Below, piece after piece: positions 17,327-60,128 of a stretch of 64,000 nucleotides of DNA. Both the position numbers and the translations under genes were made by a program. The first letter of the stretch is position 1. Each line of letters begins with the position of its first letter. Below the pieces are notes generated by a model that saw nothing but the letters and a program-made list of their open reading frames with translations, was not told the DNA's origin and did not search any database. The DNA is taken from the sequence record MK373786.1; one strand, 5' to 3'. Source of the stretch: Escherichia phage vB_EcoM_R5505.

Positions 17327-17379
17327 CCTCATGTTATGTCAGTAAGACTACTATAACACAACACGAGGGACTTGTAAAC
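17327..17379 (-). promoter_or_regulatory. Early promoter, copy 1 of a 53-nt repeat (GTTTAC-N18-TATAGT)
   Basis: Near-identical to 32653-32706 (2 mismatches in 53 nt); -35 GTTTAC (plus-strand gtaaac at 17374-17379). Confidence 0.65.
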
Positions 17380-19436: not shown

Positions 19437-19439
19437 GAT

Positions 19440-21530
19440 TTATCCTTGAACGAACTTGTAAGGCATGTTTGTAATATCTATGCAAGACGCAATAATTCCA
19501 AGAGATGATTCTACTTTCTGTTTAACATTTGATGAAACAAATGATGCAAAGTCAACTCTATCTTCTATATCACCTGTCATTGCAACTACTTCGCCGGTTT
19601 CCATTAAACGGTCACCGTCATAAATTACCGATTCGGTGAGTTCTTCTGTGGTCATAACTTCAGCTTGAATGAGTTTTGTATTATTAGACGTGGTTCCGTC
19701 ATTATTAGAAGCATCAGTTATTTTATTAACTTTAACCATCAATCCGCGCGGTAGAATAACTTCAGCTTCTGTTGCTATTCCTAGACTTCCTGGATATACA
19801 ACATTAACTTTATGTGCGCCGTCAATTGCCCATCCTATTTGAACTTTAACGTATTCAGGATTTTCTTTATACGCTCTTATTTCGTTTGGATTAATAGTTA
19901 TTCCTTCTTCATTTTTATCAACTGTCAATTCATTACGAGCTTCTGGTTCTAAAAGACCAATACCAGCATGTGTAATTCCAAAACGCCCAAAAATGATAGG
20001 AGTTAAAGAAGTAGATACAAAATTTCTGAAATAGAACACTTTATTTTTAACTAGCGCTTCGTATATAGGAGCAGTCATACTTTGAGCACGATAAACTGTA
20101 ATGCCTTCCGGTATGCGGTCACCATTTTCAAAAGCTGAATCTAAATTATTTATAGCAGATTCAATTTCTTTTTCACTCATTACATCATATCGTTCTGGAT
20201 TGTAACGACCTAAAAGAAGATTATTGATGTCAGTATATCCTGAACCACAATACTCTCTAATGCCGCGCTTTTGTGATGGAGTATATTTAGAACCATCACG
20301 AGCAATAGTAATATCAATCATTGGACCTGCACCAATTCCGGAAAAGCTATAAATCATTCGTTTGAGGAATTTAGTTTTTGCTGCGTTCCAGGAATTTTTA
20401 GTTATTTCTTCCCAGACTTCATCTGGTTGCCCTTTACGAGTTTTATTATGTTTATCAAGCCAATTATCTTTATATTCTTCAAAGAATTTATTAATAGCTG
20501 CTGCGTATTTCTCTAAACATTTTATTGAAGTAGTTGGTTCATTTTTTATCGCGTTAAAAATTACATCTTTAATTTTTTCGGAAACTTCATCAACCTCACT
20601 TTTTGAAAAGAATTTATAGTCATAGTGAAGTTCATTCGCAGTTCCTTCGGCAATAATTTTTGCTGCCTTAGTTTTAGAAGCTAATGAATTAATTCCAAGC
20701 TTCATTTCTTCTGCTTCGGGAATTAAAGGAGCGGTAGCGGGTTTATTGAAATTAGCTGCGGTAGATTCATACTTCTGAAATAATTCACTTTCAAATCTAG
20801 AAGATTCCAATGACTGACTTTGTGCAATTGCTCTACGGGAAATTTTAACTTTAACGATTACAGCTTGATCAGAACGTTTATCATTTTCTTGCGCAATAGA
20901 TGCTGCAATTGCCTCATTTTTAGTTACTTGAGCTCCAGTATCTTTATTGATATAAACATCACCGACCTTCGATTCAACTTTAGTAAAGAGCTCGGTACTA
21001 ATTTCCGGAACCCCTGGAATGTCTTCTAGTGATACATTTTTGCGATGTATAAGAATATATGCATACTTTTTATCGTAATCCCAGAGTTCCTTAAGAAGGA
21101 CGTATCTGCCACCTGAACGACTACGGATAAGTCTATCAGCAATAACCTGAATTTGTCGAGCTTGACCAGCGGTTTTAGACTTAAGAATACGAAGCATACA
21201 GGCATCAATTTTATACTGACGCATTGTTTGCATTGCAACAGTAAAAACTGAATTGATATAATTAATTGGGCTTGAACCAAGACCTTTCAATTTAGCAATT
21301 GAACCTTTAGCAGTTAATGTAAAAGGAACAATATGCATCATTTTATCGCCCATCTTTAAATCGCGATTAGTATCACCTCCAGATGTATAGGTACATAAAC
21401 GAAAGCCTGGTTGTTCAATTGCATCATCAACATGAACTGAAAAAATTTGTGGTATTTTCTTCTTTGGGTTTAAGTTTGTAATCGGAAGAGTAGTATCTTC
21501 GTCAAATAATTCTGTAATGAGTTCCATCAT
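19440..21530 (-). CDS. alt: Alt, packaged NAD-protein ADP-ribosyltransferase
   Basis: 696-aa ORF; R-S-ExE signature (VYRAQ, FVSTSL, TEAEVILPRG); late promoter immediately upstream. Confidence 0.88.
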   Translation of the reverse strand: MMELITELFDEDTTLPITNLNPKKKIPQIFSVHVDDAIEQPGFRLCTYTSGGDTNRDLKMGDKMMHIVPFTLTAKGSIAKLKGLGSSPINYINSVFTVAMQTMRQYKIDACMLRILKSKTAGQARQIQVIADRLIRSRSGGRYVLLKELWDYDKKYAYILIHRKNVSLEDIPGVPEISTELFTKVESKVGDVYINKDTGAQVTKNEAIAASIAQENDKRSDQAVIVKVKISRRAIAQSQSLESSRFESELFQKYESTAANFNKPATAPLIPEAEEMKLGINSLASKTKAAKIIAEGTANELHYDYKFFSKSEVDEVSEKIKDVIFNAIKNEPTTSIKCLEKYAAAINKFFEEYKDNWLDKHNKTRKGQPDEVWEEITKNSWNAAKTKFLKRMIYSFSGIGAGPMIDITIARDGSKYTPSQKRGIREYCGSGYTDINNLLLGRYNPERYDVMSEKEIESAINNLDSAFENGDRIPEGITVYRAQSMTAPIYEALVKNKVFYFRNFVSTSLTPIIFGRFGITHAGIGLLEPEARNELTVDKNEEGITINPNEIRAYKENPEYVKVQIGWAIDGAHKVNVVYPGSLGIATEAEVILPRGLMVKVNKITDASNNDGTTSNNTKLIQAEVMTTEELTESVIYDGDRLMETGEVVAMTGDIEDRVDFASFVSSNVKQKVESSLGIIASCIDITNMPYKFVQG

Positions 21531-30062: not shown

Positions 30063-31274
<1,212 letters not shown>

Positions 31275-31278
<4 letters not shown>

Positions 31279-32709: not shown

Positions 32710-34297
<1,588 letters not shown>

Positions 34298-34305
34298 AAT
34301 AAAAT

Positions 34306-34319
34306 GGGCCTTGCGGCCC
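34306..34319. terminator. Hairpin gggcc-ttgc-ggccc between nrdB and denA
   Basis: GC-rich stem-loop. Confidence 0.6.
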
Positions 34320-34324
34320 ACTCC

Positions 34325-35503
34325 TTAAAAATATTTTTTAAAACTCATCATAACTTTATCATCAACATCATTATCAATCTGTGCAACAAGATAAGATGAC
34401 AGTTCTACTTCTTGTGGCGCGGATTGAACATTATCAGAATTAAGATATTCACGAATCCAAGGATATGGGTGTTTAACCGGAGCATCGGTAATTGGGCATG
34501 GAAGACCACACTGTTTCATACGAGATACAGTTAAGTAATCAATAAAGCTCCACATGCTATTTGTATTTAATCCAGGAACATCGCCATCTTTAAATAAATG
34601 AACTGCCCAATCTTTTTCTTGGCGGTTAACTTCCATGAAAATATCAACTGCTTCTTGTTCACACTCTTGAGCAATTTTAACCCATTCATCGCCATCAGTG
34701 CCAAGTTGAAGTTGACGAATAATATATTGGGTGCCTTTAAGGTGAAGCTGCTCATCACGTGCAATGAACTTCATAATCTTGGCATTACCTTCCATGATTT
34801 CCATGTTCTTATGGAAGTTAAAGGTACACGCGAAAGATACATAAAAACGAATAGCTTCTAAGGCATTAATAACGTGCAAACAGAGGTAAAGAGATTTCAT
34901 TAGCTCACGCTTCCAATATGTCTCATGCTCAATAGCATCTTCAATAACGTCTTCGTCTGCATTAATTTCTTTTTGGTATTCGATATCAGCTTTAGCGTTT
35001 TCCCAATAACGAGTTTTAATCAGAACATCATCATAATAACGTCCAATGGATTCAGCACGTTTCATAATAGCTTCATCTAATACAATTTCATCAAATACCT
35101 TCGATGGATCAGTATAAAGATTTCGCATGATATGTGTATATGAACGGCTGTGAATAGTTTCACTAAAAGTCCATGTAGCAACCCATGTATCAAGGCTTGG
35201 GTCTGAAATTAATGACATAAGTACAGCAGACGGTGCACGACCCTGAATGCTATCCAAAAGTGATTGATACTTCAGGTTATTAGTAAAAATATTTTGCTGA
35301 TACTGAGGAAGCTTATTAAACTGTGCAGCATCCATCATTAAGTTTACTTCTTCAGGACGCCAGAAAAATGATAATTGCTTTTCGGTCAAATCTTCAAAAA
35401 CTTTATGGCGTTGAATATCATAACGCGCAATACCAAGACCTGAACCAAAAAACATAGGTTCTTTTAAAACATCAACTGGATTTGTATTAAAAACTGTGCT
35501 CAT
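34325..35503 (-). CDS. nrdB: Ribonucleotide reductase small subunit, uninterrupted
   Basis: 392-aa continuous ORF with di-iron ligand regions; no intron. Confidence 0.95.
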   Translation of the reverse strand: MSTVFNTNPVDVLKEPMFFGSGLGIARYDIQRHKVFEDLTEKQLSFFWRPEEVNLMMDAAQFNKLPQYQQNIFTNNLKYQSLLDSIQGRAPSAVLMSLISDPSLDTWVATWTFSETIHSRSYTHIMRNLYTDPSKVFDEIVLDEAIMKRAESIGRYYDDVLIKTRYWENAKADIEYQKEINADEDVIEDAIEHETYWKRELMKSLYLCLHVINALEAIRFYVSFACTFNFHKNMEIMEGNAKIMKFIARDEQLHLKGTQYIIRQLQLGTDGDEWVKIAQECEQEAVDIFMEVNRQEKDWAVHLFKDGDVPGLNTNSMWSFIDYLTVSRMKQCGLPCPITDAPVKHPYPWIREYLNSDNVQSAPQEVELSSYLVAQIDNDVDDKVMMSFKKYF

Positions 35504-35554
35504 AAATTTTCCACTTAGTTAATAGATAGTGACTCGTCCATGAGTCAAATTATA

Positions 35555-37819
35555 TCATAATTTACAGGATGAACAATCTTCAGCTTTTGGAGTTTCTATT
35601 TCATAATCATCAGTACCAGAACCATCACGGGTATTATGATAATAGAAATTTTTTCCGCCAAAATACCAGAAATACAAAAGGTCATCAATCATTATTGACA
35701 TTGGAACCTTGCCTTTAGGGAAGATTTGGGGGTCATAGTATGTATTCGCTGAAGCTGATTGACAAACCCATTTCAGCATAATAGCTACCTGCGTAAGATA
35801 AGGTTTATTACCTTTCTTAGCTAATTTCCATGTATAATCATAGAGGTCTATGTTATGCTCAATATTGGGCACGACTTGATTAAAGGAGCCCTCTTTTGAT
35901 TCTTTAACAGAGACTGGTCCACGTGGAGGCTCGATACCGTTTGTACTGTTAGAAACTTGGGAAGATGACTCACATGGCATAAGTGCTGATAATGTGCTAT
36001 TACGGATGCCAAAGAGCTTAAGGTCTTCCCGCAGCGACGACCAGTCACAAACGTATTTTGGAGCTGCGATTTGGTCAATCTTTTTATTGTACCAGTCGAT
36101 AGGTAATTCGCCTCGAGACCAACGAGTGTCTGAATAATATTCGCAAGGTCCTTTTTCTTTGGCGAGCTTAATGGATGCTTTAATGAGTCCATACTGTAAT
36201 CTCTCAAATAGTTCATGTGTTAAATCGTTAGCATCTTCATAAGAAGCAAAGTTACTTGCCAGCCAAGCTGCATAGTTGGTAACACCTACACCGAGGTTAC
36301 GACGCTTTTTAGCTTTTTCTGCTTCAGGAACTGGATATCCTTGATAATCCAAAAGATTATCAAGAGCACGAACTTGAACTTCTGCCAATTCATTAATTTT
36401 ATCTTGGTCTTGCCAGTCAAAATTATCTAGTACGAATGCAGAGAGAGTACACAATCCAATTTCAGCATCAGGACTGTTCACATCATTTGTTGGAATAGCA
36501 ATTTCACAGCACAAGTTACTCTGACGAATAGGTGCCTTTTCACGAATAAACGGAGTATAGTTATTCGTATTATCAATGAACTGCACATAAATCCTTGCTG
36601 TTCCTGAACGTTCAGTCATGAGCAATTCAAATAGTTCACGAGCTTTAATACGCTTTTTGCGAATATTAGGGTCTTTTTCTGCTGCTTCGTATAATTCACG
36701 GAAACGGTCTTGGTCTTTAAAATAAGAATAATAAAGCTCGCCACCCATTTCATGCGGGCTGAACAAAGTAATGTAATCATTCTTTCCGAATCGTTCCATC
36801 ATCAAATCATTCAGCTGAACACCATAATCCATATGACGAATGCGGTTTTCTTCTACGCCTTTGTTATTTTTCAAAACGAGAAGATTTTCAACTTCCAAAT
36901 GCCAAATAGGATAATAAGCAGTAGCAGCGCCGCCACGAATTCCACCCTGTGAACATGATTTAACAGCAGTCTGAAAATGTTTCCAAAAAGGAATAACACC
37001 GGTATGGCGTACTTCACCCATGCCAATCTTAGAACCTTCGGCACGAATCATACCAACGTTAATACCAATTCCAGCGCGTTTAGAGATATATTCAACAATT
37101 GAAGCAGAAGCCTTATTGATAGACTTCAGCGAATCACCTGCCTCAATAACAACACATGAACTAAACTGTCGAGTCGGAGTACGGCAACCAGCCATAATAG
37201 GAGTTGGCAATGAAATCTGTCGAGTAGATACTGCTTCATAAAAACGGATAACATGTTTTAGTCTATCAACAGGTTCATCTTGATGCAATGCCATTCCAAT
37301 AGCCATAAATGCAAACTGCGGAGTTTCATAAATTTGACCAGTGGTTTTATCTTTAACTAGATATTTTTCTTTTAATTGCATCGCCCCGGAATAAGTAAAT
37401 TCCATATCCCGCTCGTGCTTAATTTTTGATTCTAAAAATGTAATTTCTTCTGCTGAATATTTTGACAATAATTCAGGGTCATATTTACCTGCATTTACAC
37501 AATAAGAAATATGGTCAATAAATGAACGTGGTTCATACTGCCCATAAACATGCTTACGAAGAGCAAACATTAAACAGCGTGCAGCTACATATTGATAATC
37601 AGGCTCTTCAACCGAAATAGAATTCGCAGCAGCCTTAATGACAATAGTCTGAATATCATCAGTTGTCATTCCATCACGGAGATAAGATTTAATGTTTTCA
37701 TATAATTCATAAGGATCTACTGATGTTCCTTCAGCTGCCCAAGATAAAACTTTAATAATTTTTTGCGGGTCAAAGCTCTGAGAAACACCACTACTTTTGA
37801 TAACATTAATTAATTGCAT
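35555..37819 (-). CDS. nrdA: Ribonucleotide reductase large subunit
   Basis: 754-aa ORF, class Ia RNR; C-terminal CSSCKL. Confidence 0.97.
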   Translation of the reverse strand: MQLINVIKSSGVSQSFDPQKIIKVLSWAAEGTSVDPYELYENIKSYLRDGMTTDDIQTIVIKAAANSISVEEPDYQYVAARCLMFALRKHVYGQYEPRSFIDHISYCVNAGKYDPELLSKYSAEEITFLESKIKHERDMEFTYSGAMQLKEKYLVKDKTTGQIYETPQFAFMAIGMALHQDEPVDRLKHVIRFYEAVSTRQISLPTPIMAGCRTPTRQFSSCVVIEAGDSLKSINKASASIVEYISKRAGIGINVGMIRAEGSKIGMGEVRHTGVIPFWKHFQTAVKSCSQGGIRGGAATAYYPIWHLEVENLLVLKNNKGVEENRIRHMDYGVQLNDLMMERFGKNDYITLFSPHEMGGELYYSYFKDQDRFRELYEAAEKDPNIRKKRIKARELFELLMTERSGTARIYVQFIDNTNNYTPFIREKAPIRQSNLCCEIAIPTNDVNSPDAEIGLCTLSAFVLDNFDWQDQDKINELAEVQVRALDNLLDYQGYPVPEAEKAKKRRNLGVGVTNYAAWLASNFASYEDANDLTHELFERLQYGLIKASIKLAKEKGPCEYYSDTRWSRGELPIDWYNKKIDQIAAPKYVCDWSSLREDLKLFGIRNSTLSALMPCESSSQVSNSTNGIEPPRGPVSVKESKEGSFNQVVPNIEHNIDLYDYTWKLAKKGNKPYLTQVAIMLKWVCQSASANTYYDPQIFPKGKVPMSIMIDDLLYFWYFGGKNFYYHNTRDGSGTDDYEIETPKAEDCSSCKL

Positions 37820-38136
37820 AAGTCCTCAACTTGAAAATCGTCTTTAAACAATCGGTTAACTATATGAGCTATTATATCACCATGACACGGCTTTGGTTTA
37901 CATGTGCATCCTAGCCTCATTCCACGTAAAGGCTCTAAATGTGCTTTAGTTATTTCTCCGGATTTAATTCGACGTATAAAATCTTTTTTGAATAATTCAA
38001 TGGCAGCCTCCCGGCTGCCAGCATCTTTACCGACGTAATTTCCCCAAAATGTACCGCGGTGAATATTAACATCAAAGTCGGATTTGTATTTATTCACTAC
38101 CCGGCATAGACGGCCCACGCTGGAATAATTCGTCAT
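37810..38136 (-). CDS. Hypothetical protein (nrdA.1 position)
   Basis: 108-aa ORF with [11 protein letters not shown] cysteine cluster. Confidence 0.7.
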
Positions 38137-38353
38137 ATTGTTTTTCCGTTAAAACAGTAATATCGTAGTAACAGTCAGAAGAAGTTTTAACTGTGGAAAT
38201 TTTATTATCAAAATACTCACGAGTCATTTTATGAGTATAATATTTTTTACCATAAATGATAATAGGCTGTTCTGGTCCTGGAACTTCTAACTCGCTTGGG
38301 TTAGGAAGTGTAAAAAGAACAACGCCAGAAGTATCTTTAAATCGTAAAATCAT
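38090..38353 (-). CDS. Hypothetical protein (nrdA.2 position)
   Basis: 87-aa ORF. Confidence 0.65.
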
Positions 38354-39210
38354 ATTGCCATTTTCCCTTTAATTGCTGGATGCGATTCATAATTTTCAAG
38401 GATAAAATCTTTCGGTTTCATGTATTCAGTTAACCAGTAAAGCTGTGTTTCGGTGTCACAATTTCCAAACTCTATAGGCCAATCAATTTTAAGTTCACAC
38501 AGTTCTTTAGGCTCACGACGTAAAATTTCTTTACATTGCTCAGTATGATTCATATAGATGTGAGTATTACCACCAGAAAATATCAAATCTCCTGGGATAA
38601 GATTACACATCTTAGCCACAATATGCGTCAAGGCAGCGTACGAGGCAATGTTGAATGGCAAGCCCAAGAAAACATCTACACTTCTTTGGTACCATTGTAA
38701 ATCAAGATAACCATTACGCACATTAAACTGATAGAACATATGACAGGGCGGTAATGCCATTTGATTGATTTCAGCTGGATTCCATGCTGAAACGATTTGA
38801 CGTCGATCAGTTGGTAATTTTTTAATACGATCAATAGTTTCAACTAATTGATCCACACCACCGAAATCACGCCATTGTTTACCGTATATAGGACCAAGTT
38901 CACCACTATGATATCCTAGGTCTTTAGCCTGGTTTTCATAGTTATCGTCCCAAATAGTTTTACCTTGAATAAGACTACCATGAGTGCGAAGACGTAAATC
39001 ATTAACATTGGTAGAACCGGAAATAAACCATAGAAGCTCAGCAATGCATGCATTCCAGGCGAGCTTCTTAGTTGTTACTGCAGGAAAACCTTTAGTTAAA
39101 TCCCAGCGTAATTTAGTACCGAACAAAGCAATTGTTCCTGTGCCTGTTCGGTCATCGGTTTCATAACCATTTTCAAAAATGTCTTTAATTAAATCTTGGT
39201 ATTGTTTCAT
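38350..39210 (-). CDS. td: Thymidylate synthase, uninterrupted
   Basis: 286-aa continuous ORF; catalytic motif PPCHMFYQF; no intron. Confidence 0.97.
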
Positions 39211-39254
39211 TTAGTACCTTATATAAATTATAATACATTTTATGAAGCTAATAA

Positions 39255-39602
39255 TTAATACGGTTTAGCATCAAATTTTCTCTCAATTTCAGGCGTGAAA
39301 TATAATTCTTTACCGCGTTTGGAAAAGCGACCAATAATATGATAATTATTCTCATCAAACGTGATATTACCAATATCCATAGCTTTCAACCAAATATCGA
39401 TATTTCTATCCAGCTTTATGTCAAAATTCCAATACGGAGAACTATTACCGAAAATACTGCAAGCGGATTCAGTGAAACAACTGCTATAAATCTTGTCTTT
39501 AGGAACTACTAATTGATAGACACCTTTAATAAACTGAGGACCCTGCCACTTTGGCTGTTTCGCGTCTTTTTCTAATAGAATAGGGTAATAATTAAAATTC
39601 AT
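39255..39602 (-). CDS. Hypothetical accessory protein inserted between frd and td
   Basis: 115 aa from the ATG at 39602 (track start at 39614 is GTG); no recognisable motifs. Confidence 0.6.
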   Translation of the reverse strand: MNFNYYPILLEKDAKQPKWQGPQFIKGVYQLVVPKDKIYSSCFTESACSIFGNSSPYWNFDIKLDRNIDIWLKAMDIGNITFDENNYHIIGRFSKRGKELYFTPEIERKFDAKPY

Positions 39603-39622
39603 ATTTTCCGCCACGCGTTATT

Positions 39623-40443
<821 letters not shown>

Positions 40444-40452
40444 TATATTTCC

Positions 40453-40695
40453 TCAAATAGACTTTTTCACAATTTTCCAATCGGCTTTAAACTGCTCGAC
40501 GTCAGAATGGTAAATCCAGAATCCTGCGCTTTCTCCGTCTTCATAAAGAGGACATCCATCACATTCATCTTCCCACCCCATATCACGTAAAAGGTGTTCA
40601 GCTTTTTCAACAAGCTCAGAATCTTTACCGATGATATTAAAATACCATTTACCTCTAACTTCTGAATCTTTAATGCTCTGACGTTGTAATCTCAT
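40453..40695 (-). CDS. Hypothetical protein
   Basis: 80 aa from internal Met with GAGGAG Shine-Dalgarno; the 5' part of the track ORF is an early promoter. Confidence 0.55.
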   Translation of the reverse strand: MRLQRQSIKDSEVRGKWYFNIIGKDSELVEKAEHLLRDMGWEDECDGCPLYEDGESAGFWIYHSDVEQFKADWKIVKKSI

Positions 40696-40714
40696 TTTAT
40701 TCTCCTCATGTAGT

Positions 40715-40755
40715 TGATAGGGTAATAGTATCACACTACTACCCTGTTGTAAACA
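40715..40755 (-). promoter_or_regulatory. Early promoter (GTTTACA-N17-TACTAT family)
   Basis: On the minus strand GTTTACAacagggtagtagtgtgaTACTAT. Confidence 0.6.
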
Positions 40756-40762
40756 ATTATTT

Positions 40763-41059
40763 TTAAATTTTATCGAGCCACTTACCAAGCTTAATCATTT
40801 CTTTAGTAGCCTTTTCCATACTTCTGAACTTAACCAATAGAGGATAGGTATCGACACCCATAACTAAACTGGTTACAAGACTGTGTTCACCCACAAGCCA
40901 TAACGAATACGTTTGAATATCGAGCCCGTAATTTCTGTCTTTATGGACCCGTACACCCATCACTTCAAATTTCTCACTAGCTTTTTCTACCGCATCCAGG
41001 AAATCATCTTTAGTCATATTAGGCCTTAAAAGTTTTTCGCAAAAGTTCAATGATTTCAT
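40763..41059 (-). CDS. Hypothetical protein
   Basis: 98-aa ORF; alternative start at Met15. Confidence 0.55.
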   Translation of the reverse strand: MKSLNFCEKLLRPNMTKDDFLDAVEKASEKFEVMGVRVHKDRNYGLDIQTYSLWLVGEHSLVTSLVMGVDTYPLLVKFRSMEKATKEMIKLGKWLDKI

Positions 41060-41384
41060 CTACATTGTTTTCGTCAACAATGCAGTGAATTTTTGTTACG
41101 CCATAAACCTCGTCTTTGACTTCATCTTCTTCAGAAGTCGGTTCTTTATACTCACGAAAACAATGAAATTCGTCTTCACAAACGTTAAAGTAAAAATGCT
41201 TTCCATTTGCGCATTCAATGTGTTTTATTACTCTAAATCCATCAACAAAGAAAGCTTCTTTAACTTCAAACCATCCTCCATTTTCTTGAATAATTTTAAC
41301 TATTGATGAATTAGAACGTGGGCGATAATTAATAAATGTATCAATAAGTCTTGGAACAAGTTCATACTTTTTGCCGATATACAT
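41019..41384 (-). CDS. Hypothetical protein
   Basis: 121-aa ORF. Confidence 0.65.
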   Translation of the reverse strand: MYIGKKYELVPRLIDTFINYRPRSNSSIVKIIQENGGWFEVKEAFFVDGFRVIKHIECANGKHFYFNVCEDEFHCFREYKEPTSEEDEVKDEVYGVTKIHCIVDENNVDEIIELLRKTFKA

Positions 41385-41404
41385 TACGTTTTCCTCATTT
41401 TAAC

Positions 41405-41421
41405 GGGGCTGTAATAGCCCC
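41405..41421. terminator. Hairpin ggggct-gtaata-gcccc
   Basis: GC stem-loop between ORFs. Confidence 0.55.
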
Positions 41422-41428
41422 TTGATAA

Positions 41429-41659
41429 TTATTGTTCAATCAATCCCATGTAAAATTCTGCGTCTTCAGAATCCATGCCATCACAGTATTCATTAGCCAT
41501 AAAGCGGGTGAGGTCTTCAAGAGGACCTTCAATGACAATAGAAAAATTGCAATAATTGGGATCATCATGAATACTTGTGATACTAAGTTCAGGATAACGA
41601 TTACGAATAATTTCTTCGATATATTCAAAATCAACGATGTCAATATCAACTTTAGCCAT
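41429..41659 (-). CDS. Hypothetical acidic protein
   Basis: 76 aa from MAKVDIDIV with AAAGAGGAAA Shine-Dalgarno; track ORF starts 7 codons earlier. Confidence 0.6.
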
Positions 41660-41693
41660 ATTATTTTCCTCTTTAATCATCAGCAGTATTGCC

Positions 41694-41765
41694 GATAGTT
41701 GTATAGTACCACAGTATGCTTTGGTTGTAAACCGTTTTGTGAAAAAATTTTTAAAATAAAAAAGG
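41694..41765 (-). promoter_or_regulatory. Early promoter with A/T-rich upstream element, copy of a 71-nt repeat
   Basis: Near-identical to 58101-58171; GTTTACA-N17-TACTAT. Confidence 0.65.
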
Positions 41766-41782
41766 GGACCTCTAGGGTCCCC
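41764..41782. terminator. Terminator hairpin downstream of gene 32
   Basis: ggggacc-tctag-ggtcccc. Confidence 0.75.
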
Positions 41783-41804
41783 GATTAATTAGTAATATAA
41801 TCTA

Positions 41805-42713
41805 TTAAAGGTCATTCAAAAGGTCATCCAGGTCCGTGTCATCAGCACTAGATGAACTGCCAGAGCTTGAGCTCATAAAATCATCTTCAGTTTTTGTATT
41901 GAAGTCATCAACATTGAATGCATCCAAATCATCAGCAACTTTATCAGCTTTCTTAGCAGCAGTCGCTGCGGCACCGCCCATCACAGCAGTTCCCATAACT
42001 TGACCGAATTTAGTATTCAGTTCTTCAAATGATTTGAATTTATCTTTAGAAGTCATTTCAGAAAGGTCAACCATTTGTTCGAACAGTTCTTTCTGGAAAG
42101 ATTCATCATCAATGTTTGGAATCGCAGATTGATTCAGGAATTTAGATTCGTCGTAGTTACTAAATCCAGAAACTTGTTTAACTTTCAGTACAAAGTTAGC
42201 ACCTTCCCACGGACAAGTTACATCAACTGGAGTTTCACCCATTTCAACATCAACCGCAATCATTGCATTGATTTTATCCCAGATTTTCTTACCGAAACGG
42301 TATTTAAATACTTTACCTTCGTTTTCTGGAGCAGCTGGGTCTTTTACTACAAGAATGTTAGCCCAGTAAGAAGTTTTACGTTTAACAAGACTGTACTCTT
42401 TATTGTCAGTGTTGTACAGATCATTTTTACTAATGTATTGACATACTGGGCAAGAATCGTAATCACCGTGGGTAGATGAACAGTTTTCAATATACCATTT
42501 ACCATTTTTCTTGAAACCATGATTTACAAGAATTGCGAATGGTGCTTGTTCATCATTTTTAGACGGAAGAAAACGAATTACTGCTTGACCGTTACCCGCA
42601 TTGTCGAGTTTCAGTTTCCACTCGCCTTTATCTTCAGAAGAAAAACCACTTTTATTTCCAGCCAGTTTAGCCATTTGTGCAGCGAGTTCAGCAGTAGATT
42701 TACGTTTAAACAT
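41805..42713 (-). CDS. 32: Single-stranded DNA-binding protein gp32
   Basis: 302-aa ORF; zinc ligands ([10 protein letters not shown]) and acidic Ser/Asp-rich C-terminal tail. Confidence 0.97.
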
Positions 42714-42745
42714 TTTTATTTCCTTTTTAATTTAATTAACAGTTG

Positions 42746-42778
42746 GTGCTATGACGATGTATGACCTCATAGCTGGTC
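42746..42778 (-). promoter_or_regulatory. Gene 32 translational operator, H-type pseudoknot
   Basis: mRNA-sense UGACC-A-GCUAUGA-GGUCA-UACAUCG-UCAUAGC gives two interleaved stems, followed by an unstructured A/U-rich leader. Confidence 0.65.
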
Positions 42779-42796
42779 AGTGAGATAATTATAATC

Positions 42797-42804
42797 TATT
42801 TATA
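42797..42804 (-). promoter_or_regulatory. Late promoter (TATAAATA on minus strand) upstream of gene 32
   Basis: Plus-strand tatttata. Confidence 0.5.
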
Positions 42805-42812
42805 ATAAGCAA

Positions 42813-43466
42813 TTAATACTTACAAGATTTCACAGTTTCAATGAAAACATTTTTAGCTTTCTGTGAATCAATATTTAAAATTTTTCTATAAGCCTTTAAC
42901 TTTATAGAATAATTATTCCAGACTAAATTATCAGTCTGTTCATCATGTTTATCAATTATATTTAAAAATGAATCAAGCAAGATAAACGTTTCAAACGAAA
43001 TTATGTTCGACTGAAGCAGTTTAAAAATATAGCTTGATTGAACTTTTGGATTATATTCAAAGATTTCTTTAAAAGCAGAAACTTCAACTTTTTTACTAAA
43101 ATAATAAATGTTGCGAATATCTTCTTCAAACTTAAATTTAATTTGCTTTAAGCGTCCGATATATTCACGATAAAACACAAGTGCATCAGCGTCAGAGATG
43201 TCGCCAATCCAAGCATCTTGGTTAGCAACCAAATTACTTATAAAGATTAAAGCAAGTTCCTTTAATTTATATTTTTCTGATAACTTCTGGAAAAAATACT
43301 TATCCCTTCGCTTTTGATAAGCGGCATCAGACACCCGCATGCACCAATTATACTTAATAACATCATACTTTCCATTCATATGTTGTTTTATCATTAAGTA
43401 TAATTTATAAACTGATTTACCATCAATGTATCTTTCACCACCAGCAGGCATGCGGAGTTTAATCAT
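42813..43466 (-). CDS. 59: gp59 helicase loader
   Basis: 217-aa ORF directly upstream of gene 32. Confidence 0.92.
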   Translation of the reverse strand: MIKLRMPAGGERYIDGKSVYKLYLMIKQHMNGKYDVIKYNWCMRVSDAAYQKRRDKYFFQKLSEKYKLKELALIFISNLVANQDAWIGDISDADALVFYREYIGRLKQIKFKFEEDIRNIYYFSKKVEVSAFKEIFEYNPKVQSSYIFKLLQSNIISFETFILLDSFLNIIDKHDEQTDNLVWNNYSIKLKAYRKILNIDSQKAKNVFIETVKSCKY

Positions 43467-43801
43467 AGTAGAAAATCTAATGTATTAGTTTTTTCACAAC
43501 GAACAACAGAAGGACGTAAAAGATTTTCATCAATAGCTTCTGACTGAATTTTTTCAATTATACCCGAAGGAATAAATTTAGCAAATTGAGTTTCAGGAAT
43601 AGAGTTTTCTTCCAAGAATGCTGTCGTAGCTTCAAGATAACTCATTCCAAACTCTTCTACCATTTTTTCAATAATAAATCCATTTTCTTGACGATCAAGA
43701 AGCTTTGCTATTTCATCCTTTTCTTTCTTAATTGAAAGTTCTTTTTCTGAAAGACCGGTCTCATCGACCGGACGAATATCATTTAGAGAAAACTGTGTCA
43801 T
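43463..43801 (-). CDS. 33: gp33 late transcription co-activator
   Basis: 112 aa from MTQFSLNDIRPV; acidic. Confidence 0.88.
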   Translation of the reverse strand: MTQFSLNDIRPVDETGLSEKELSIKKEKDEIAKLLDRQENGFIIEKMVEEFGMSYLEATTAFLEENSIPETQFAKFIPSGIIEKIQSEAIDENLLRPSVVRCEKTNTLDFLL

Positions 43802-44048
43802 AAAGTTCAACTACCTCTTCAGTTTCAGCTTCAAACACATCACGGTTATCTTTATGATACAAAGCTAATAGACGATTAAACATCTTACCATCAACGCCAA
43901 GTTCATCTTTGGCACGAATTCGAATATCTTTAATCAATTCATTATAACCGGAAATTTTCAGTTTATGATCAGATGCTTCTTTAATAAATTTAGCCAAGTC
44001 TTCGCCATGGATAGCTTCATCAAATTCAACCATTTCTTTTTTAGCCAT
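43779..44048 (-). CDS. dsbA: DsbA double-stranded DNA-binding protein
   Basis: 89-aa ORF between rnh and gene 33. Confidence 0.85.
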   Translation of the reverse strand: MAKKEMVEFDEAIHGEDLAKFIKEASDHKLKISGYNELIKDIRIRAKDELGVDGKMFNRLLALYHKDNRDVFEAETEEVVELYDTVFSK

Positions 44049-44056
44049 TATTCACC

Positions 44057-44974
44057 TCAAAATTCATTAATGCTATTAGTTAATTTAGAAAGACCCGCTT
44101 TTACAAAATATGAATAAATTTTGCCACGCGGTGGTAATTTATATGAATTATAGTAATTCACAATGTTTGAAGCAATATTATCAGGAATATAATCAAAATC
44201 AATTAGAACTAAATTTTCTTTATAACGATTATATTCAGATTCTGTGAGAAGCACCTTAGCTTGCTCACGGTCATTAGCAATAGCTTCAACGATTGAAGTT
44301 TTCATTGAAGGAGTTCGTTCACCTTCAACTCTGGTAAACCAAAAGTCAGAACGTACTTTAACTGAAGCAACGTTATCCTTTTTGTCACCCTTAAGAATTT
44401 TAGTCATACAATCAATTTCAGCAGAACCGCTTTTAATTTTAACCCATTTCTTGTGCATCGGTGACCATTGCTTAACATTTGGATATTTGTGAAGCTGAGT
44501 AAAGTCACCATCAGATGAAATGATTAAAATCTTATGCCCTTCTAAAGAGAACTTTTTAACAAGAACAGCAATGTGGTCATCTGCTTCATACTTATCAATA
44601 TCCATAACAATGTATGGCATATAAGCTTTCAATTCATCTATAACTTTATGGCTGGATTCAAAATAACCTTCCCAGTCCCAAGTAGATTCTTCTCGTGCTT
44701 TTCCACGGTTTTTCTTGTAATAATACGCGAAATCACGACGCCAGTATCCAGATTTCGCGTTATCAATACACAGTACAATTTTAGTGTATCCAAGCGTTTT
44801 TGCTTTTTTGACATTAAACTTAATTGAGTTCAATATCAAATGACGAACCATTGATAAATTAATTTTTTCTTTATCTGGGAAGTTTACTAAAGCAGTTGAA
44901 AGCGCAATTTGACTAAAGTCAATTAAGCAAATTCCTTCTTTGTAATCTTCATCCAGCATCATTTCTAAATCCAT
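44057..44974 (-). CDS. rnh: RNase H (5'-3' exonuclease, FEN-1 family)
   Basis: 305 aa from MDLEMMLDEDYKEG (GAGG Shine-Dalgarno); acidic metal-binding clusters. Confidence 0.93.
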   Translation of the reverse strand: MDLEMMLDEDYKEGICLIDFSQIALSTALVNFPDKEKINLSMVRHLILNSIKFNVKKAKTLGYTKIVLCIDNAKSGYWRRDFAYYYKKNRGKAREESTWDWEGYFESSHKVIDELKAYMPYIVMDIDKYEADDHIAVLVKKFSLEGHKILIISSDGDFTQLHKYPNVKQWSPMHKKWVKIKSGSAEIDCMTKILKGDKKDNVASVKVRSDFWFTRVEGERTPSMKTSIVEAIANDREQAKVLLTESEYNRYKENLVLIDFDYIPDNIASNIVNYYNSYKLPPRGKIYSYFVKAGLSKLTNSINEF

Positions 44975-45003
44975 ATGAACCTCGTTCAATTAGTGAGATT
45001 TCT

Positions 45004-45033
45004 ATTATATACCATCCAAATCTTAAAGTAAAC
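45004..45033 (-). promoter_or_regulatory. Early promoter for rnh (GTTTAC-N18-TATAAT)
   Basis: On the minus strand GTTTACtttaagatttggatggtaTATAAT. Confidence 0.6.
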
Positions 45034-45036
45034 AAG

Positions 45037-45044
45037 TATAAATA
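45037..45044 (+). promoter_or_regulatory. Late promoter (TATAAATA) for gene 34
   Basis: tataaata about 35 nt upstream of gene 34 ATG, back-to-back with the rnh early promoter. Confidence 0.75.
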
Positions 45045-45078
45045 CTTATTATTGAAAACACAATAGGAGCCCGGGAGA

Positions 45079-48000
45079 ATGGCCGAGATTAAAAGAAAGT
45101 TCAGAGCAGAAGATGGTCTGGACGCAGGTGGTGATAAAATAATCAACGTAGCTTTAGCTGATCGTACCGTAGGAACTGACGGTGTTAACGTTGATTACTT
45201 AATTCAAGAAAACACAGTTCAACAATATGATCCAACTCGTGGATATTTAAAAGATTTTGTAATCATTTATGATAACCGCTTTTGGGCTGCTATAAATGAT
45301 ATTCCAAAACCAGCAGGAGCTTTTAATAGCGGACGCTGGAGAGCATTACGTACCGATGCTAACTGGATTACAGTCTCATCTGGTTCATATCAATTAAAAT
45401 CCGGTGAAGCAATTTCGGTTAACACCGCAGCTGGAAATGACATCACGTTTACTTTACCATCTTCTCCAATTGATGGCGATACTATCGTTCTCCAAGATAT
45501 TGGAGGAAAACCTGGAGTTAACCAAGTTTTAATTGTAGCTCCAGTGCAAAGTATTGTAAACTTTAGAGGTGAACAGGTACGTTCAGTACTAATGACTCAT
45601 CCAAAGTCACAGCTAGTTTTAATTTTTAGTAATCGTCTGTGGCAAATGTATGTAGCTGATTATAGTAGAGAAGCTGTAGTTGTAACACCAGCGAATACTT
45701 ATCAAGCGCAATCTAATGATTTTATCGTGCGTAGATTTACTTCTGCTGCACCAATTAATGTCAAACTTCCAAGATTTGCTAATCATGGCGATATTATTAA
45801 TTTCGTTGATTTAGATAAACTGAATCCACTTTATCATACAATTGTTACTACATACGATGAAACGACTTCAGTACAAGAAGTTGGAACTCATTCCATTGAA
45901 GGCCGTACATCGATTGACGGTTTCTTGATGTTCGATGATAATGAGAAATTGTGGAGATTGTTTGACGGTGACAGTAAAGCACGTTTACGCATTATAACGA
46001 CTAATTCTAATATTCGTCCAAATGAAGAAGTCATGGTGTTTGGAGCGAATAACGGAACAACTCAAACAATTGAGCTTCAGCTTCCTACTGATATTTCTGT
46101 TGGTGATACTGTTAAAATTTCCATGAATTACATGAGAAAAGGACAAACAGTTAAAATCAAGGCTGCGGGCGAAGATAAAATTGCTTCTTCAGTTCAATTA
46201 CTGCAATTCCCAAAACGCTCAGAATATCCGCCTGAAGCTGAGTGGGTTACAGTCCAAGAATTAGTTTTTAATGGTGAAACTAATTATGTTCCGGTTTTAC
46301 AACTTGCTTATATAGAAGATTCTGATGGAAAATACTGGGTTGTACAGCAAAACGTTCCAACTGTAGAAAGAGTTGATTCTTTAAATGATTCTACTAGAGC
46401 AAGATTAGGCGTAATTGCTTTAGCTACACAAGCTCAAGCTAACGTCGATTTAGAAAATTCTCCTCAAAAAGAATTAGCAATTACTCCAGAAACGTTAGCT
46501 AATCGTACTGCTACAGAAACTCGTAGAGGTATTGCAAGAATAGCAACTACTGCTCAAGTGAATCAGAACACCACATTCTCTTTTGCTGATGATATTATCA
46601 TCACTCCTAAAAAGCTGAATGAAAGAACTGCTACAGAAACTCGCAGAGGTGTCGCAGAAATTGCTACACAGCAGGAAACTAATACAGGTACTGATGATAC
46701 TACAATCATTACTCCTAAAAAGCTTCAAGCTCGCCAAGGTTCTGAGTCATTATCTGGTATTGTAACTTTTGTATCTACTGCAGGTGCTACTCCAGCTTCT
46801 AGCCGTGAATTAAATGGTACGAATGTTTATAATAAAAACACTAATAATTTAGTTGTTTCACCTAAAGCTTTGGATCAGTATAAAGCTACTCCAACGCAGC
46901 AAGGTGCAGTAATTTTAGCAGTTGAAAGTGAAGTAATTGCTGGACAAAGTCAGGAAGGATGGGCAAATGCTGTTGTAACACCAGAAACGTTACATAAAAA
47001 GACATCAACTGATGACAGAATTGGTTTAATTGAAATTGCTACGCAAAGTGAAGTTAATACAGGAACTGATTATACTCGTGCAGTCACTCCTAAAACTTTA
47101 AATGACCGTAGAGCAACTGAAAGTTTAAGTGGTATAGCTGAAATTGCTACACAAGTTGAATTCGACGCAGGCGTCGACGATACTCGTATCTCTACACCAT
47201 TAAAAATTAAAACCAGATTTAATAGTACTGATCGTACTTCTGTTGTTGCTCTATCTGGATTAGTTGAATCAGGAACTCTCTGGGACCATTATACCCTTAA
47301 TATTCTTGAAGCAAATGAGACACAGCGTGGTACACTTCGTGTAGCTACACAGGTTGAAGCTGCTGCAGGAACATTAGATAATGTTTTAATAACTCCTAAA
47401 AAGCTTTTAGGTACTAAATCTACCGAATCGCAAGAAGGTGTTATTAAAGTTGCAACTCAGTCTGAAACTGTGACTGGAACGTCAGCAAATACTGCTGTAT
47501 CTCCAAAAAATTTAAAATGGATTGTGCAGAGTGAACCTACTTGGGCAGCTACTACTGCGATAAGAGGTTTTGTTAAAACTTCATCTGGTTCAATTACATT
47601 CGTTGGTAATGATACAGTCGGTTCTACCCAAGATTTAGAACTGTATGAGAAAAATAGCTATGCGGTATCACCATATGAATTAAACCGTGTATTAGCAAAT
47701 TATTTGCCATTAAAAGCAAAAGCTGTAGATAGTAATTTATTGGATGGTCTAGATTCATCTCAGTTCATTCGTAGGGATATTGCACAGACGGTTAATGGTT
47801 CACTAACCTTAACCCAACAAACGAATCTGAGTGCCCCTCTTGTATCATCTAGTACTGCTACGTTTGGTGGATCAGTTTCGGCAAATAGTACATTAACTAT
47901 TTCTAATACTGGAACGGCAACTCGTCTGATTTTTGAGAAAGGACCTCAAACTGGAACTAACCCAGCACAGACGATGACTATCAGAGTTTGGGGAAATCAG

Positions 48001-50808: not shown

Positions 50809-53800
50809 ATGGCTACTTTAAAACAAATACAATTTAAAAGAAGCAAAACCGCAGGTGCACGTCCTGCTGCTTCAGTATTAGCCGAAGGTGAATTGGCTAT
50901 AAACTTAAAAGATAGAACAATTTTTACTAAAGATGATTCAGGAAATATCATTGACTTAAGCATTTCTGCTGGTGGTAATATCAGTGGAAATATCACTCAA
51001 ACTGGTGATTATACACAGACTGGAAAATTTAATTTAATTGGTCCGCAAATTGTAGCAAGCGGTGGATATATTGAGTTTAATTATCGTACTACTGGAAGTG
51101 GGGCTTGGTCCGGTCAACATACTGCGAAAGCTCCAATTTTTGTAGATTTAAGCTCAGCTACTTCCACATCTGAATATAATCCTATAATTAAACAGCGCTT
51201 TAAAGATGGAACTTTTTCATTAGGTACTTTAGTTTCTGAAGGTTCGTTGAAGATTCATTATATCAATGAATCTGGCGATTCGAAATATTGGACGTTTCGA
51301 CGTGACGGCGGATTTACTGTTGACGGTGGAGGTTTAGCAGTATCAGGAGGTAGTATAACTACATCTGGAAATATTGCAGCTATTGGAAATATTACTTCGC
51401 CTCAGATTAATACTAAAAATATTATTTTAGATACAAAAGCATTTGGACAATACGATTCGCAATCATTAGTTCAATATGTTTATCCTGGAACAGGTGAAGA
51501 AAATGGTATAAACTATCTTCGTAAAGTTCGAGCTAAATCAGGCGGAACCATTTACCATGAATTAGCTTCTGCGCAAACCGGAAAAAGTGATGAACTTTCT
51601 TGGTGGACTGGTAATACAGCCGTTAATAAACAAATGGGTCTTCGTAATGATGGGGCTTTAGTATTACGACGCTCACTCGCAATTGGTACAATTACAACAG
51701 ATGAAAACATTAATAACTACGGCTCCGCTGGAGCAATGGGCGAATGTTATATAGTTATCGGTGATGCATCAACAGGCTTATCATACAAAAAAACTGGAGT
51801 ATATGATTTAGTTGCTAGTGGTCTTTCTTTAGCATCTATTACTCCTGATAGTTTCCGTAGTACCCGTAAAGCGATTTTTGGTCGTTCCGAGGACCAAGGT
51901 ACAACATGGATTATGCCTGGAACCAACGCCGCGTTTTTATCGGTTCAAACACAAGCTGATGAAAACACTGCTGGAGACGGCCAGACGCATATTGGCTATA
52001 ACTCAGGCGGAAAAATGAACCACTATTTCCGTGGTAAAGGCAAAACTAATATTAATACTCAAGAAGGCATGGAAGTTAACCCGGGTATTTTGAAATTGGT
52101 AACTGGCTCTAATAATGTAATGTTTTATGCTGATGGCGGTATTACATCTGTTAAGCAGCTTTCAATATATAATGGCATATATTTAGCAGCTAATAATTCT
52201 ACTGCTGGGCTAACATTCGCTCCAACTACTACAATTGATGGTACTAAGCAAATTTTGTGGGAAGGCGGTACTCGTGCTGGGCAGAATAAAAGCTATGTAA
52301 CTGTTAAAGCATGGGGTAATTCATTTAACGCATCTGGCGATCGTAATCGTGAAACGGTTTTTGAAGTAGCTGATGGACAAGGATATTATTTTTATTCACA
52401 GCGTGTGGCTCCAAGTGGCTCTGAAACTACTGGGCCTGTTGTAACCCAGTTCAATGGACAAGTTAATGCTAGAGGAAGTATTATTACTGACGGAAGTTTT
52501 AAAGTTAATGGATTAAGCACTTTAGTCGGTAATGTTACCATGTCTAATGGTTTGTTTGTCCAAGGTGGTTCTTCTATTACTGGACAAGTAAAAATTGGTG
52601 GAACTGCTGATGCATTAAGAATTTGGAATGCCGAATACGGTGCTATTTTCCGTCGCTCAGAAACAGCATTACATATTATCCCGACTCCTAAAGATGCCGG
52701 TGAAAGTGGTGGAATAAGTAATCTCCGCCCACTTAGTATTAGTCTTAATAATGGTATGGTACAAATGCGCCATTCTGTTACGTTAGGCGATGATGGCGCT
52801 GGAGGTAATATGATTACTGTGGACAACGATACCAAACTTGTTGTTGTTACTAGTAATAGTCGCATTTCTCCTAATTACCGTATGCAGGTAGGACAAGCAG
52901 CTTATATTGATGCTGAATGTACTGACACAGTTCGCCCGGCTGGTGCAGGGTCTTTTGCTTCACAAAATAATGAAAACGTTCGTGCTCCATTCTATATGAA
53001 TATTAATCGTACAGATACAAGTACTTACGTTCCTATTTTGAAACAACGATATGTCCAAGGAAACAGTTGTTATTCTCTGGGAACTCTAATTAACGGCGGT
53101 AACTTCAGAGTTCATTATCATGAAGGCGGCGATGGCGGTTCGACTGGCGCTATTATAAAGGATTTAGGTTGGGAATTTAACAAAAATGGTGATTTTATAT
53201 CTCCTAAGCGTGTTTCTGCTGGTGGTTCAGTTTATTTAGGTACAGACGGCAATATTACAGGTGGTTCTGGCAATTTTGCTAATTTAAACAGTACAATTGA
53301 ATCACTTAAAACCGATATTGTATCGAGTTACCCAATCGGTGCTCCTATTCCATGGCCAACGGATACTCCTCCTGACGGTTACGCTATTATGGAAGGCCAG
53401 ACTTTTGATAAGTCTGCATACCCAAAATTGGCTATGGCTTACCCATCTGGCGTAATTCCAGATATGCGCGGGCAAACTATTAAAGGTAAACCAAGTGGTC
53501 GAGCTGTATTAAGCGCAGAAGCCGATGGTGTTAAGGCTCATAGCCATAGTGCATCGGCTTCAAGTACTGACTTGGGTACTAAAACTACGTCGAGTTTTGA
53601 TTATGGTACTAAGACGACAAGTAGCTTTGACTATGGCACTAAGACTAGCAATACCACAGGTAACCACTCTCATACTGTAAGCGGTACTACGAGTTCTGCT
53701 GGTGCACACCAACATGCGCGCTCAGGTCCTCAGATACAAGCCGGCATACCCAATAACATATTCTATGACGGATATAATAGTGTAGGTGCAAACGCCAACG

Positions 53801-59972: not shown

Positions 59973-60128
59973 TCAACTATTTTTAGAACCAATGTACGCG
60001 AATAATGATAAAATCGCTAATACGCCCTGAGCTGATGCTTGCAAAAATACTGAAGTTTCTCCAGTTATTACTGTTCCGATGCATAAAAAGAACCAACAGA
60101 AAAAGGCTATACCGTGAACAAGTTTCAT
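59973..60128 (-). CDS. Ac-like paralog, 51-aa membrane protein, not in ORF track
   Basis: MKLVHGIAFFCWFFLCIGTVITGETSVFLQASAQG... shares the CW..C...SVF.QA.AQG pattern with the adjacent ac ORF. Confidence 0.5.
   Translation of the reverse strand: MKLVHGIAFFCWFFLCIGTVITGETSVFLQASAQGVLAILSLFAYIGSKNS

Follow-up and report, generated by a model that had tools for sequence, protein, structure and literature searches.

At six loci that are colonised by homing elements in bacteriophage T4, Escherichia phage vB_EcoM_R5505 in all likelihood (a probability of about 0.9) carries uncolonised recipient alleles. The window on which this conclusion rests is a 64,000-nt stretch of the phage (record MK373786.1) that spans gene 23 to rIIB, and the absence of homing elements described here refers to these 64 kb; the remainder of the phage genome lies outside the window and may include further homing endonuclease genes (HEGs). 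T4 has all six elements and the window has none, yet the two phages share the host genes and the precise points of insertion, with the window retaining the target-side sequences, flanked by polymorphisms of the recipient type rather than the T4 type.

Relationship of the window to T4 and other tequatroviruses

We compared the window with the T4 reference (NC_000866) by blastn, using the T4 annotation for feature names, and with T2 (AP018813), which classically serves as the recipient when T4 and T2 are crossed (marker exclusion). The gene order from gene 23 to rIIB is collinear with that of T4, with 94-98% nucleotide identity over most blocks. Positions 34000-40000 are 98-99% identical to named Tequatrovirus records such as 303Ecol101PP, EH2 and RB14 (98% in the case of RB14), and the window is a segment of a phage of the genus Tequatrovirus, of the T2/RB14 kind. 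T2 and the RB14/RB32 group are relatives of T4 with few HEGs. It is a mosaic, identical to no single record among those compared, the best match reaching 99.2% over 6 kb. T2 shares with it the gene order, empty sites in td and nrdB and at the 23/24, inh/uvsW, nrdA/nrdB and 32/59 junctions, an extra ORF between frd and td, two alt paralogs and an identical 5' end of uvsW. Likewise, RB14 has the frd-td ORF and empty td, nrdB, nrdA-nrdB and 32-59 sites, and 303Ecol101PP displays the same empty layout.

Six segments are present only in T4 within this otherwise collinear alignment: segD, segE, the nrdB intron, nrdB.1 together with mobE, the td intron and segG. What the initial annotation of the window stated about T4 proved accurate: according to the T4 annotation and Table 1 of PMC2988022, both td and nrdB contain self-splicing group I introns in T4, the inh-uvsW junction is occupied by segE and the 32-59 junction by segG. 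Pairwise alignment across these four sites, which the annotation had proposed as a check, revealed that the elements are absent at all of them; T4 is not collinear with the window at these junctions, since the window lacks all four elements. Two further sites that the annotation had not listed, those of segD (23/24) and of nrdB.1 and mobE (nrdA/nrdB), are empty as well. Presence and absence were read directly from alignments, which leaves no role for chance. It is hardly credible that the introns and HEGs were dropped during assembly or that the window is chimeric, given that the same uninterrupted arrangement recurs in dozens of phages sequenced independently, at 98-99% identity over positions 34000-40000, that both reading frames are intact and that the junctions are exact; nothing that we found in the window or in these comparisons spoke for such an artefact.

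The td gene and its empty intron site

38350-39210, minus strand: td (thymidylate synthase), 286 aa, uninterrupted (ORF coordinates, alignment)
38650-38688, minus strand: empty td intron insertion site, between 38662 and 38661, equivalent of the 38-bp I-TevI target (alignment)

As first noted from the reading frames, td is one continuous 286-aa ORF, and the alignment to T4 confirms that the T4 td intron is absent. The 1017-nt intron, including I-TevI (T4 143547-144563), lies opposite window 38662|38661, and, at base resolution, the gap in the pairwise alignment falls exactly at the T4 intron boundaries. The td allele itself is distinct, being only 77-78% identical at the nucleotide level to td of either T4 or T2, and is of the RB14/U5 type (about 98% identity to RB14-type sequence over positions 34000-40000). 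The identities of the blastn blocks had suggested that the divergence might be a scar on the T4 side, confined to the td 5' exon and produced by one-sided co-conversion. This idea was rejected: td is a separate allele over its whole length, with a C-terminus that is very different as well.

The same td haplotype is found with the intron in at least 7 sequenced phages, namely, U5, G8, Lutter, fPS-2, e11/2, AV121 and KarlGJung. At the 195 td sites that separate the window from T4, the window and RB14 are window-type throughout, whereas the intron carriers have T4-type tracts of differing length around the insertion site: from -28 to +3 in U5, to +9 in e11/2, to -45 in G8 and Lutter, to +24 in fPS-2, and across the whole of exon 2 in AV121 and KarlGJung. 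The I-TevI cut is at -23/-25, and the shortest of these tracts begin immediately 5' to it. Outside the short tract at the insertion site, the td exons of U5, G8, Lutter, fPS-2 and e11/2 are 97-100% identical to those of the window; these phages have the intron and a donor-type co-conversion tract, and the window has neither. In e11/2, I-TevI is truncated and only 445 nt of the intron remain.

The I-TevI target comprises 38 bp, from -27 to about +11/+12 (PMC2988022). Its counterpart in the window differs from the T4 sequence at 10 of the 38 positions, with the local amino acids unchanged, and the cleavage motif reads CAAAG (38688-38684) versus CAACG in T4, with C1 and G5 kept.

The nrdB gene and the nrdA-nrdB junction

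34325-35503, minus strand: nrdB (RNR small subunit), 392 aa, uninterrupted (ORF coordinates, alignment)
34798-34867, minus strand: empty nrdB intron insertion site, between 34828 and 34827 (alignment; PMC1865063)
35378-35382, minus strand: MobE nick-site equivalent (nt 122-126 of T2 nrdB)
35504-35554, no strand: nrdA-nrdB spacer, 51 bp, empty; T4 has nrdB.1 and mobE, about 700 bp (alignment, T4 annotation)

The claim that nrdB is a single continuous ORF, here of 392 aa, stands equally, and alignment to T4 shows the nrdB intron to be missing. In T4, where nrdB exon 1 measures 664 nt, the 598-nt intron with its I-TevIII remnant (T4 138458-139055) lies opposite window 34828|34827, and from -40 to +30 around this site a single base, at -5, differs from the T4 exons. 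Farther away, nrdB diverges from T4 in two islands, nt 60-180 and nt 480-600, so that the notion of 5' exon divergence as a T4 scar of one-sided co-conversion could be kept only in part, in the form of these islands. The window-type nrdB haplotype is found with the intron and a full-length I-TevIII in phage TadeuszReichstein, whose nrdB is 98-100% identical to that of the window, save for a replaced tract immediately upstream of the insertion site, at approximately nt 480-660. TadeuszReichstein has both the intron and a donor-type co-conversion tract, and the window lacks both.

The nrdB.1 and mobE segment of T4 (139719-140420) corresponds to window 35503-35559 in the blastn alignment. MobE nicks T2 nrdB at nt 122-126 (PMC2790892), and, around this site (nt 100-140), the window is T2-like, with 3 differences, and unlike T4.

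Junctions occupied by free-standing endonuclease genes in T4

2110-2192, no strand: gene 23-gene 24 spacer, 83 bp, empty; T4 has segD, on the opposite strand (alignment, T4 annotation)
6230-6910, minus strand: inh (ORF coordinates)
6911-6960, no strand: inh-uvsW spacer, 50 bp, empty; T4 has segE (alignment, T4 annotation)
6961-8472, plus strand: uvsW (ORF coordinates)
6961-7113, plus strand: first ~150 nt of uvsW, in the SegE target gene (alignment; PMC2988022)
41805-42713, minus strand: gene 32 (ORF coordinates)
42714-42812, no strand: gene 32-gene 59 spacer, 99 bp, empty; T4 has segG (alignment, T4 annotation)
42813-43466, minus strand: gene 59 (ORF coordinates)

The inh-uvsW and 32-59 spacers are indeed as short as had been described, and neither contains a GIY-YIG or HNH ORF; the latter spacer includes the gene 32 leader and a TATAAATA late-promoter consensus. 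By blastn, the T4 segments containing segD (106521-107311), segE (112044-112680) and segG (147918-148542) lie opposite window 2120-2181, 6947-6967 and 42776-42812, respectively. The target gene of SegE is uvsW (Table 1, PMC2988022), and its first 150 nt in the window differ from T4 at 36 positions and from T2 at none, with 2-3 mismatches per 150 nt farther on. Judging by this pattern, the uvsW 5' end reads as a recipient-type allele. The contiguous flanks at the empty sites match, in the alignments, the flanks of the elements in occupied genomes.

The sites might be empty because their sequences drifted, or were selected, beyond the reach of the endonucleases, especially in the case of the synonymously recoded I-TevI target. 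The 10 substitutions in that target and the change from CAACG to CAAAG are compatible with this explanation, as is the report that I-TevI cuts many CNNNG variants poorly (PMC5009752). However, the motif retains C1 and G5, and the occupation of the same td allele in U5, G8 and other phages, with tracts running from the cleavage site onward, weakens the case for immunity of the recoded target. Moreover, the I-TevIII site is one base off a tested T4 intron-minus substrate, and the sequences on the SegE and MobE sides match those of T2, a known sensitive recipient. Resistance is therefore an unlikely cause of the empty sites, which, to judge from these comparisons, would probably be cleavable today.

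Search for homing endonucleases and introns

All six-frame ORFs of the window were searched with T4 HEG proteins (tblastn and phmmer) and with GIY-YIG and HNH profiles, and no HEG match better than E = 0.01 was obtained; an ORF resembling a seg or mob gene was found nowhere in the 64 kb. The SegD, SegE, SegG and I-TevI queries produced no match in the window below E = 0.15 with either program; the GIY-YIG profile matched only denA (EndoII; E = 0.029), a gene that is present in T4 as well; and neither the HNH profile nor phmmer with MobE, I-TevIII and the 530-aa HEG of G8 gave a match below E = 0.01. No Pfam nuclease domain was detected in ten scanned ORFs from window-specific segments. An Rfam scan yielded no match in the window, nor in the T4 td-nrdB region that served as the positive control.

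Origin and distribution of the empty sites

In homing, an endonuclease encoded by the donor cuts the empty allele during mixed infection, and repair of the break off the donor copy brings in the intron or endonuclease gene along with a flanking stretch of donor sequence. Given that the window contains no flanking donor tracts, its td, nrdB, uvsW and nrdB 5' alleles have most likely escaped invasion altogether, as opposed to having lost their elements. Secondary loss would imply that the ancestors of this phage possessed the introns and the seg and mob genes and were rid of them through precise deletion or through recombination with an intron-less phage. Degeneration and loss do belong to the homing-endonuclease life cycle, as illustrated by the I-TevIII remnant of T4 and the truncated intron of e11/2, but the window has no donor-type tract at 195 td and 125 nrdB diagnostic sites, its uvsW 5' end is identical to that of the intron-poor T2, and spacers of 50-99 bp hold no remnants of HEG ORFs or introns. 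We thus regard loss as very unlikely. An allele that was invaded and later replaced in full by a naive one would look just like an allele that was never invaded, and the occupied mosaics could, in principle, stem from ordinary recombination instead of homing into this particular allele.

That the td and nrdB introns are missing from most T-even-like phages has been known since the 1990s-2000s. Against approximately 520 comparable genomes, the phage collection includes about 197 records with the td intron, 159 with segE, 142 with segG and at most 118 with the nrdB intron, the last figure being an upper bound because some of these records are not Tequatrovirus (G2285 is listed under Mosigvirus). 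It was reported in 2010 that homing endonucleases are unevenly distributed among the relatives of T4, which is itself an outlier with 15 HEGs, most of its relatives having few (PMC2988022); the counts are 2 for RB14, 1 for T2 and 0 for RB26 (Table 5, PMC2993671). Lacking these introns and HEGs is, thus, normal for relatives of T4, most of which are on record in this condition; being common and previously described, it does not amount to a discovery. The window illustrates naive recipient alleles cleanly, and the finding matters little outside bookkeeping. Nevertheless, the suggestion in the initial annotation that such empty sites are useful for reconstructing homing history is well founded: occupied td and nrdB haplotypes with tracts at the insertion site exist, and comparison with them allows the ends of co-conversion tracts to be read to the base, so that the window can serve as a teaching or reference case.

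An additional ORF between frd and td

39258-39602, minus strand: window-specific 115-aa ORF between frd and td, RB32ORF229c family, phrog_1928 (ORF list, PHROG)

Separate from the empty sites, the ORF located between frd and td has a counterpart in KarlGJung that is labelled 'putative homing endonuclease'. This identity is unsupported: the 115-aa product carries no nuclease signature that we could find, has no Pfam match and no PDB sequence match, and belongs to a PHROG family of unknown function. A representative search retrieved 17 related proteins at E <= 0.001, 16 of them 99-116 aa long, and their alignment contains no catalytic-looking motif. It is quite doubtful that the ORF is a self-mobile cassette without a known nuclease fold or, alternatively, that the recoded I-TevI target is a selected partial-resistance allele; were the ORF self-mobile, the vicinity of td would, contrary to the above, contain a mobile element. 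The ORF sits exactly in the frd/td junction, of which 12 nt, TAAATGAAA(C/T)AA, are duplicated and bracket it.

Empty intron and endonuclease sites

The vacant sites in the window are best read as recipient alleles that were never invaded, in a Tequatrovirus poor in homing endonuclease genes (HEGs), supporting their interpretation as empty homing sites in the initial annotation; such sites in relatives of T4 are an ordinary, already published phenomenon. The window is collinear with T4 (NC_000866, 100000-168903; blastn), from position 1 (T4 104402, gene 23) to 63989 (T4 168903, rIIB), with most blocks 94-98% identical. The distal tail-fibre region of gene 37 (50954-53941), at 75-79% identity to T4 or unalignable, is far more diverged than the rest, which is the usual host-range mosaicism.

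That annotation held td and nrdB to be intron-free and placed seg genes at two T4 junctions. Both points stand, and its coordinates for nrdB, td, inh, uvsW, 32 and 59 are correct. Aligned with the T4 genes, td and nrdB each show one gap, of 1017 and 598 nt, respectively, whose edges coincide exactly with the ends of the T4 introns. In T4, td has a 549-nt exon 1 and an intron at T4 143547-144563, and nrdB a 664-nt exon 1 and an intron at T4 138458-139055; the corresponding insertion sites in the window fall at 38662/38661 in td and at 34828/34827 in nrdB. According to the T4 annotation and to Edgell, Gibb and Belfort 2010 (PMC2988022, Table 1), segE separates inh from uvsW and segG separates 32 from 59; neither has a counterpart in the window, where the spacers are short. 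Two more T4 insertions are likewise absent, namely, segD (23/24) and nrdB.1 with mobE (nrdA/nrdB).

Genes and spacers at the vacant sites
2110-2192: gene 23-gene 24 spacer, 83 bp; T4 106521-107311 (segD) absent
6230-6910, (-): inh
inh-uvsW spacer, 50 bp; T4 112044-112680 (segE) absent
6961-8472, (+): uvsW
34325-35503, (-): nrdB, 392 aa
35504-35554: nrdA-nrdB spacer, 51 bp; T4 139719-140420 (nrdB.1 and mobE) absent
35555-37819, (-): nrdA
38350-39210, (-): td, 286 aa
41805-42713, (-): gene 32
42714-42812: 32-59 spacer, 99 bp; T4 147918-148542 (segG) absent
42813-43466, (-): gene 59

A T4 late-promoter consensus, TATAAATA, lies in the 32-59 spacer together with the leader of gene 32; the T4 middle and late promoters of this gene are located within segG (PMC2988022). 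The nrdA/nrdB spacer hosts different endonucleases in different phages: in phage G8 (NC_054915, L005 10390-11982), an annotated 530-aa homing endonuclease occupies the place of mobE.

Prevalence of the empty state

Megablast with window 34000-40000 matched 1022 phage records, 522 of them with >=80% query coverage; the closest are Escherichia phages 303Ecol101PP and vB_Eco_EH2 (99.2%), followed by teqsoen, RB18, RB14 and others (98%), all Tequatrovirus (T4 group). Against the roughly 520 genomes covering this stretch, the same collection contains the td intron in 197 records (>=80% coverage), the nrdB intron in at most 118 (an upper bound, because at least one match, G2285, is filed under Mosigvirus; a 12-nt offset of the query left the count unaffected), segE in 159 and segG in 142, so that the empty state is the majority state. 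The layout of T2 (AP018813) is exactly that of the window: its td (861 nt) and nrdB (1179 nt) are continuous, and its 23/24, inh/uvsW, nrdA/nrdB and 32/59 spacers are short. RB14 and 303Ecol101PP are equally empty at td, nrdB, nrdA/nrdB and 32/59, the stretches compared ending before 23/24 and inh/uvsW. Petrov et al. 2010 (PMC2993671, Table 5) list 15 HEGs in T4, 11 in T6, 8 in RB3, 4 in RB32, 2 in RB14 (none intron-encoded), 1 in T2 and none in RB26.

Probable intron homing into window-type alleles

The window td is a separate allele, 77% identical to that of T4 and 78% to that of T2, versus 96% between T2 and T4. The target of I-TevI, the td intron endonuclease, spans 38 bp (-27 to about +11 relative to the insertion site), with cuts 23 and 25 nt upstream of that site and a preferred motif CNNNG (PMC2988022). 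Window and T4 differ at 10 target positions, with the local protein segment unchanged; the cleavage motif reads CAAAG for CAACG in T4 and therefore retains C1 and G5, the critical positions (PMC5009752). An immune allele was suspected, but a chimeric query joining window td exon 1 to the T4 intron is matched end to end by U5 (98.2%), G8, AV121, Manna, Lutter, fPS-2, e11/2 and others. At 195 sites separating the window and T4 alleles, intron carriers are window-type at nearly every position, the exception being a T4-type tract that surrounds the insertion site.

T4-type td tracts in intron carriers
U5: -28 to +3
e11/2: to +9
G8, Lutter: back to -45
fPS-2: forward to +24
AV121, KarlGJung: through all of exon 2

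In the carriers with the shortest tracts, these start just upstream of the I-TevI cut, as would be expected if a double-strand break had been repaired from a T4-type donor. The td intron of e11/2 (NC_024125, L011 1753-2193) measures only 445 nt, and its I-TevI is cut down to a 168-nt ORF; in this window-type td allele, the homing endonuclease is degenerating.

Around the nrdB insertion site (-40 to +30), the window and T4 exons differ at one base (-5). In TadeuszReichstein, SHFML-11 and G2285, the nrdB intron is present and its endonuclease is full-length (1089-1090 nt), and mobE is absent; TadeuszReichstein nrdB is 98-100% identical to that of the window save for a replaced tract (approximately nt 480-660) that directly precedes the insertion site. 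This tract type is common to all intron carriers and absent from the intron-less window and T2. Similarly, the window and RB14, both intron-less, are window-type at every td site adjoining the insertion point. Former occupation followed by loss of the elements is thus unlikely, because the window bears no donor scar.

Beside each T4 insertion lies a short island in which T4 is sharply unlike both the window and T2.

Islands of divergence from T4
2543-2592: gene 24, nt 350-400; 86% to T4
6961-7113: uvsW (SegE target gene), nt 1-150; 36 mismatches to T4, 0 to T2, then 2-3 per 150 nt
35324-35444: nrdB, nt 60-180; 72-82% to T4, 95-97% to T2
42614-42664: gene 32, nt 50-100; 88% to T4; one-codon indel common to window and T2

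The nrdB island includes positions 122-126, at which nicking by MobE was mapped in T2 (PMC2790892). SegE, MobE and SegG probably have their target or immunity regions in these islands, and the one in gene 24 is perhaps such a region for SegD. Being T2-like, they indicate that the window carries alleles like those of T2, a known sensitive recipient. Resistance of the window alleles to the endonucleases is accordingly an unlikely explanation, since natural phages carry the same haplotypes in occupied form and the target regions agree with those of T2; never-invaded recipient alleles remain the preferred reading.

Other window-specific segments

One ORF was examined for its bearing on the claimed absence of HEGs:
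39258-39602, (-): 115-aa ORF of unknown function, between frd and td, exactly at the junction

In T4, by contrast, the frd stop and td start codons overlap. A 12-nt direct repeat of the junction, TAAATGAAA(C/T)AA, brackets the ORF (39202-39213 and 39618-39629) and leaves a mini-ORF, ATGAAATAA, at the frd end; the RB14 annotation describes its frd-td ORF as "flanked by 9 bp repeat". The ORF is absent from T4, e11/2 and HY03, and in fPS-2 a different ORF, of 68 aa, takes its place. A representative search returned 17 related proteins (E <= 0.001), 16 of them 99-116 aa long, whose alignment contains no catalytic-type motif; the ORF has no Pfam domain, and its structure model is confident (pLDDT 90.9). 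The label "putative homing endonuclease" on the KarlGJung counterpart is unsupported, no nuclease signature or fold having been found.

Segments absent from T4 (blastn) and associated ORFs
17398-20721: second full-length alt paralog
30967-31273, 39213-39618, 40205-40448, 40775-41026, 59975-60124, 61653-61901, 62541-62737: small ORFs
30967-31278, 40201-40443, 40763-41059, 59973-60128, 61628-61951, 62460-62789: small ORFs overlapping or adjoining these segments

Ten small ORFs scanned in and around these segments contain no Pfam nuclease domain and fall into PHROG families of unknown function, one being DUF7418. Searches of the window by tblastn and phmmer with T4 SegD, SegE, SegG, I-TevI, I-TevIII, MobE and NrdB.1, full-length I-TevIII of G2285 and the 530-aa G8 endonuclease gave no match below E = 0.01, and a GIY-YIG profile built from four T4 proteins matched solely denA (EndoII; E = 0.029), as it does in T4. 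Thus, by tblastn, phmmer, profile and, for ten ORFs, Pfam, we found no evidence of a HEG elsewhere in the window. Rfam reported nothing in the window, nor in the T4 intron region (37000-46000 of the T4 locus L001; gathering threshold), missing the known td and nrdB group I introns, presumably owing to the ORFs that interrupt these introns, so that the absence of Rfam matches is no argument against introns of this kind.

The window encodes two full-length alt-like ADP-ribosyltransferase paralogs in tandem (17379-21530, (-); 685 and 696 aa), whereas T4 has one alt and the fragments alt.-1 and alt.-2; T2 and 303Ecol101PP have two paralogs, as in the window.
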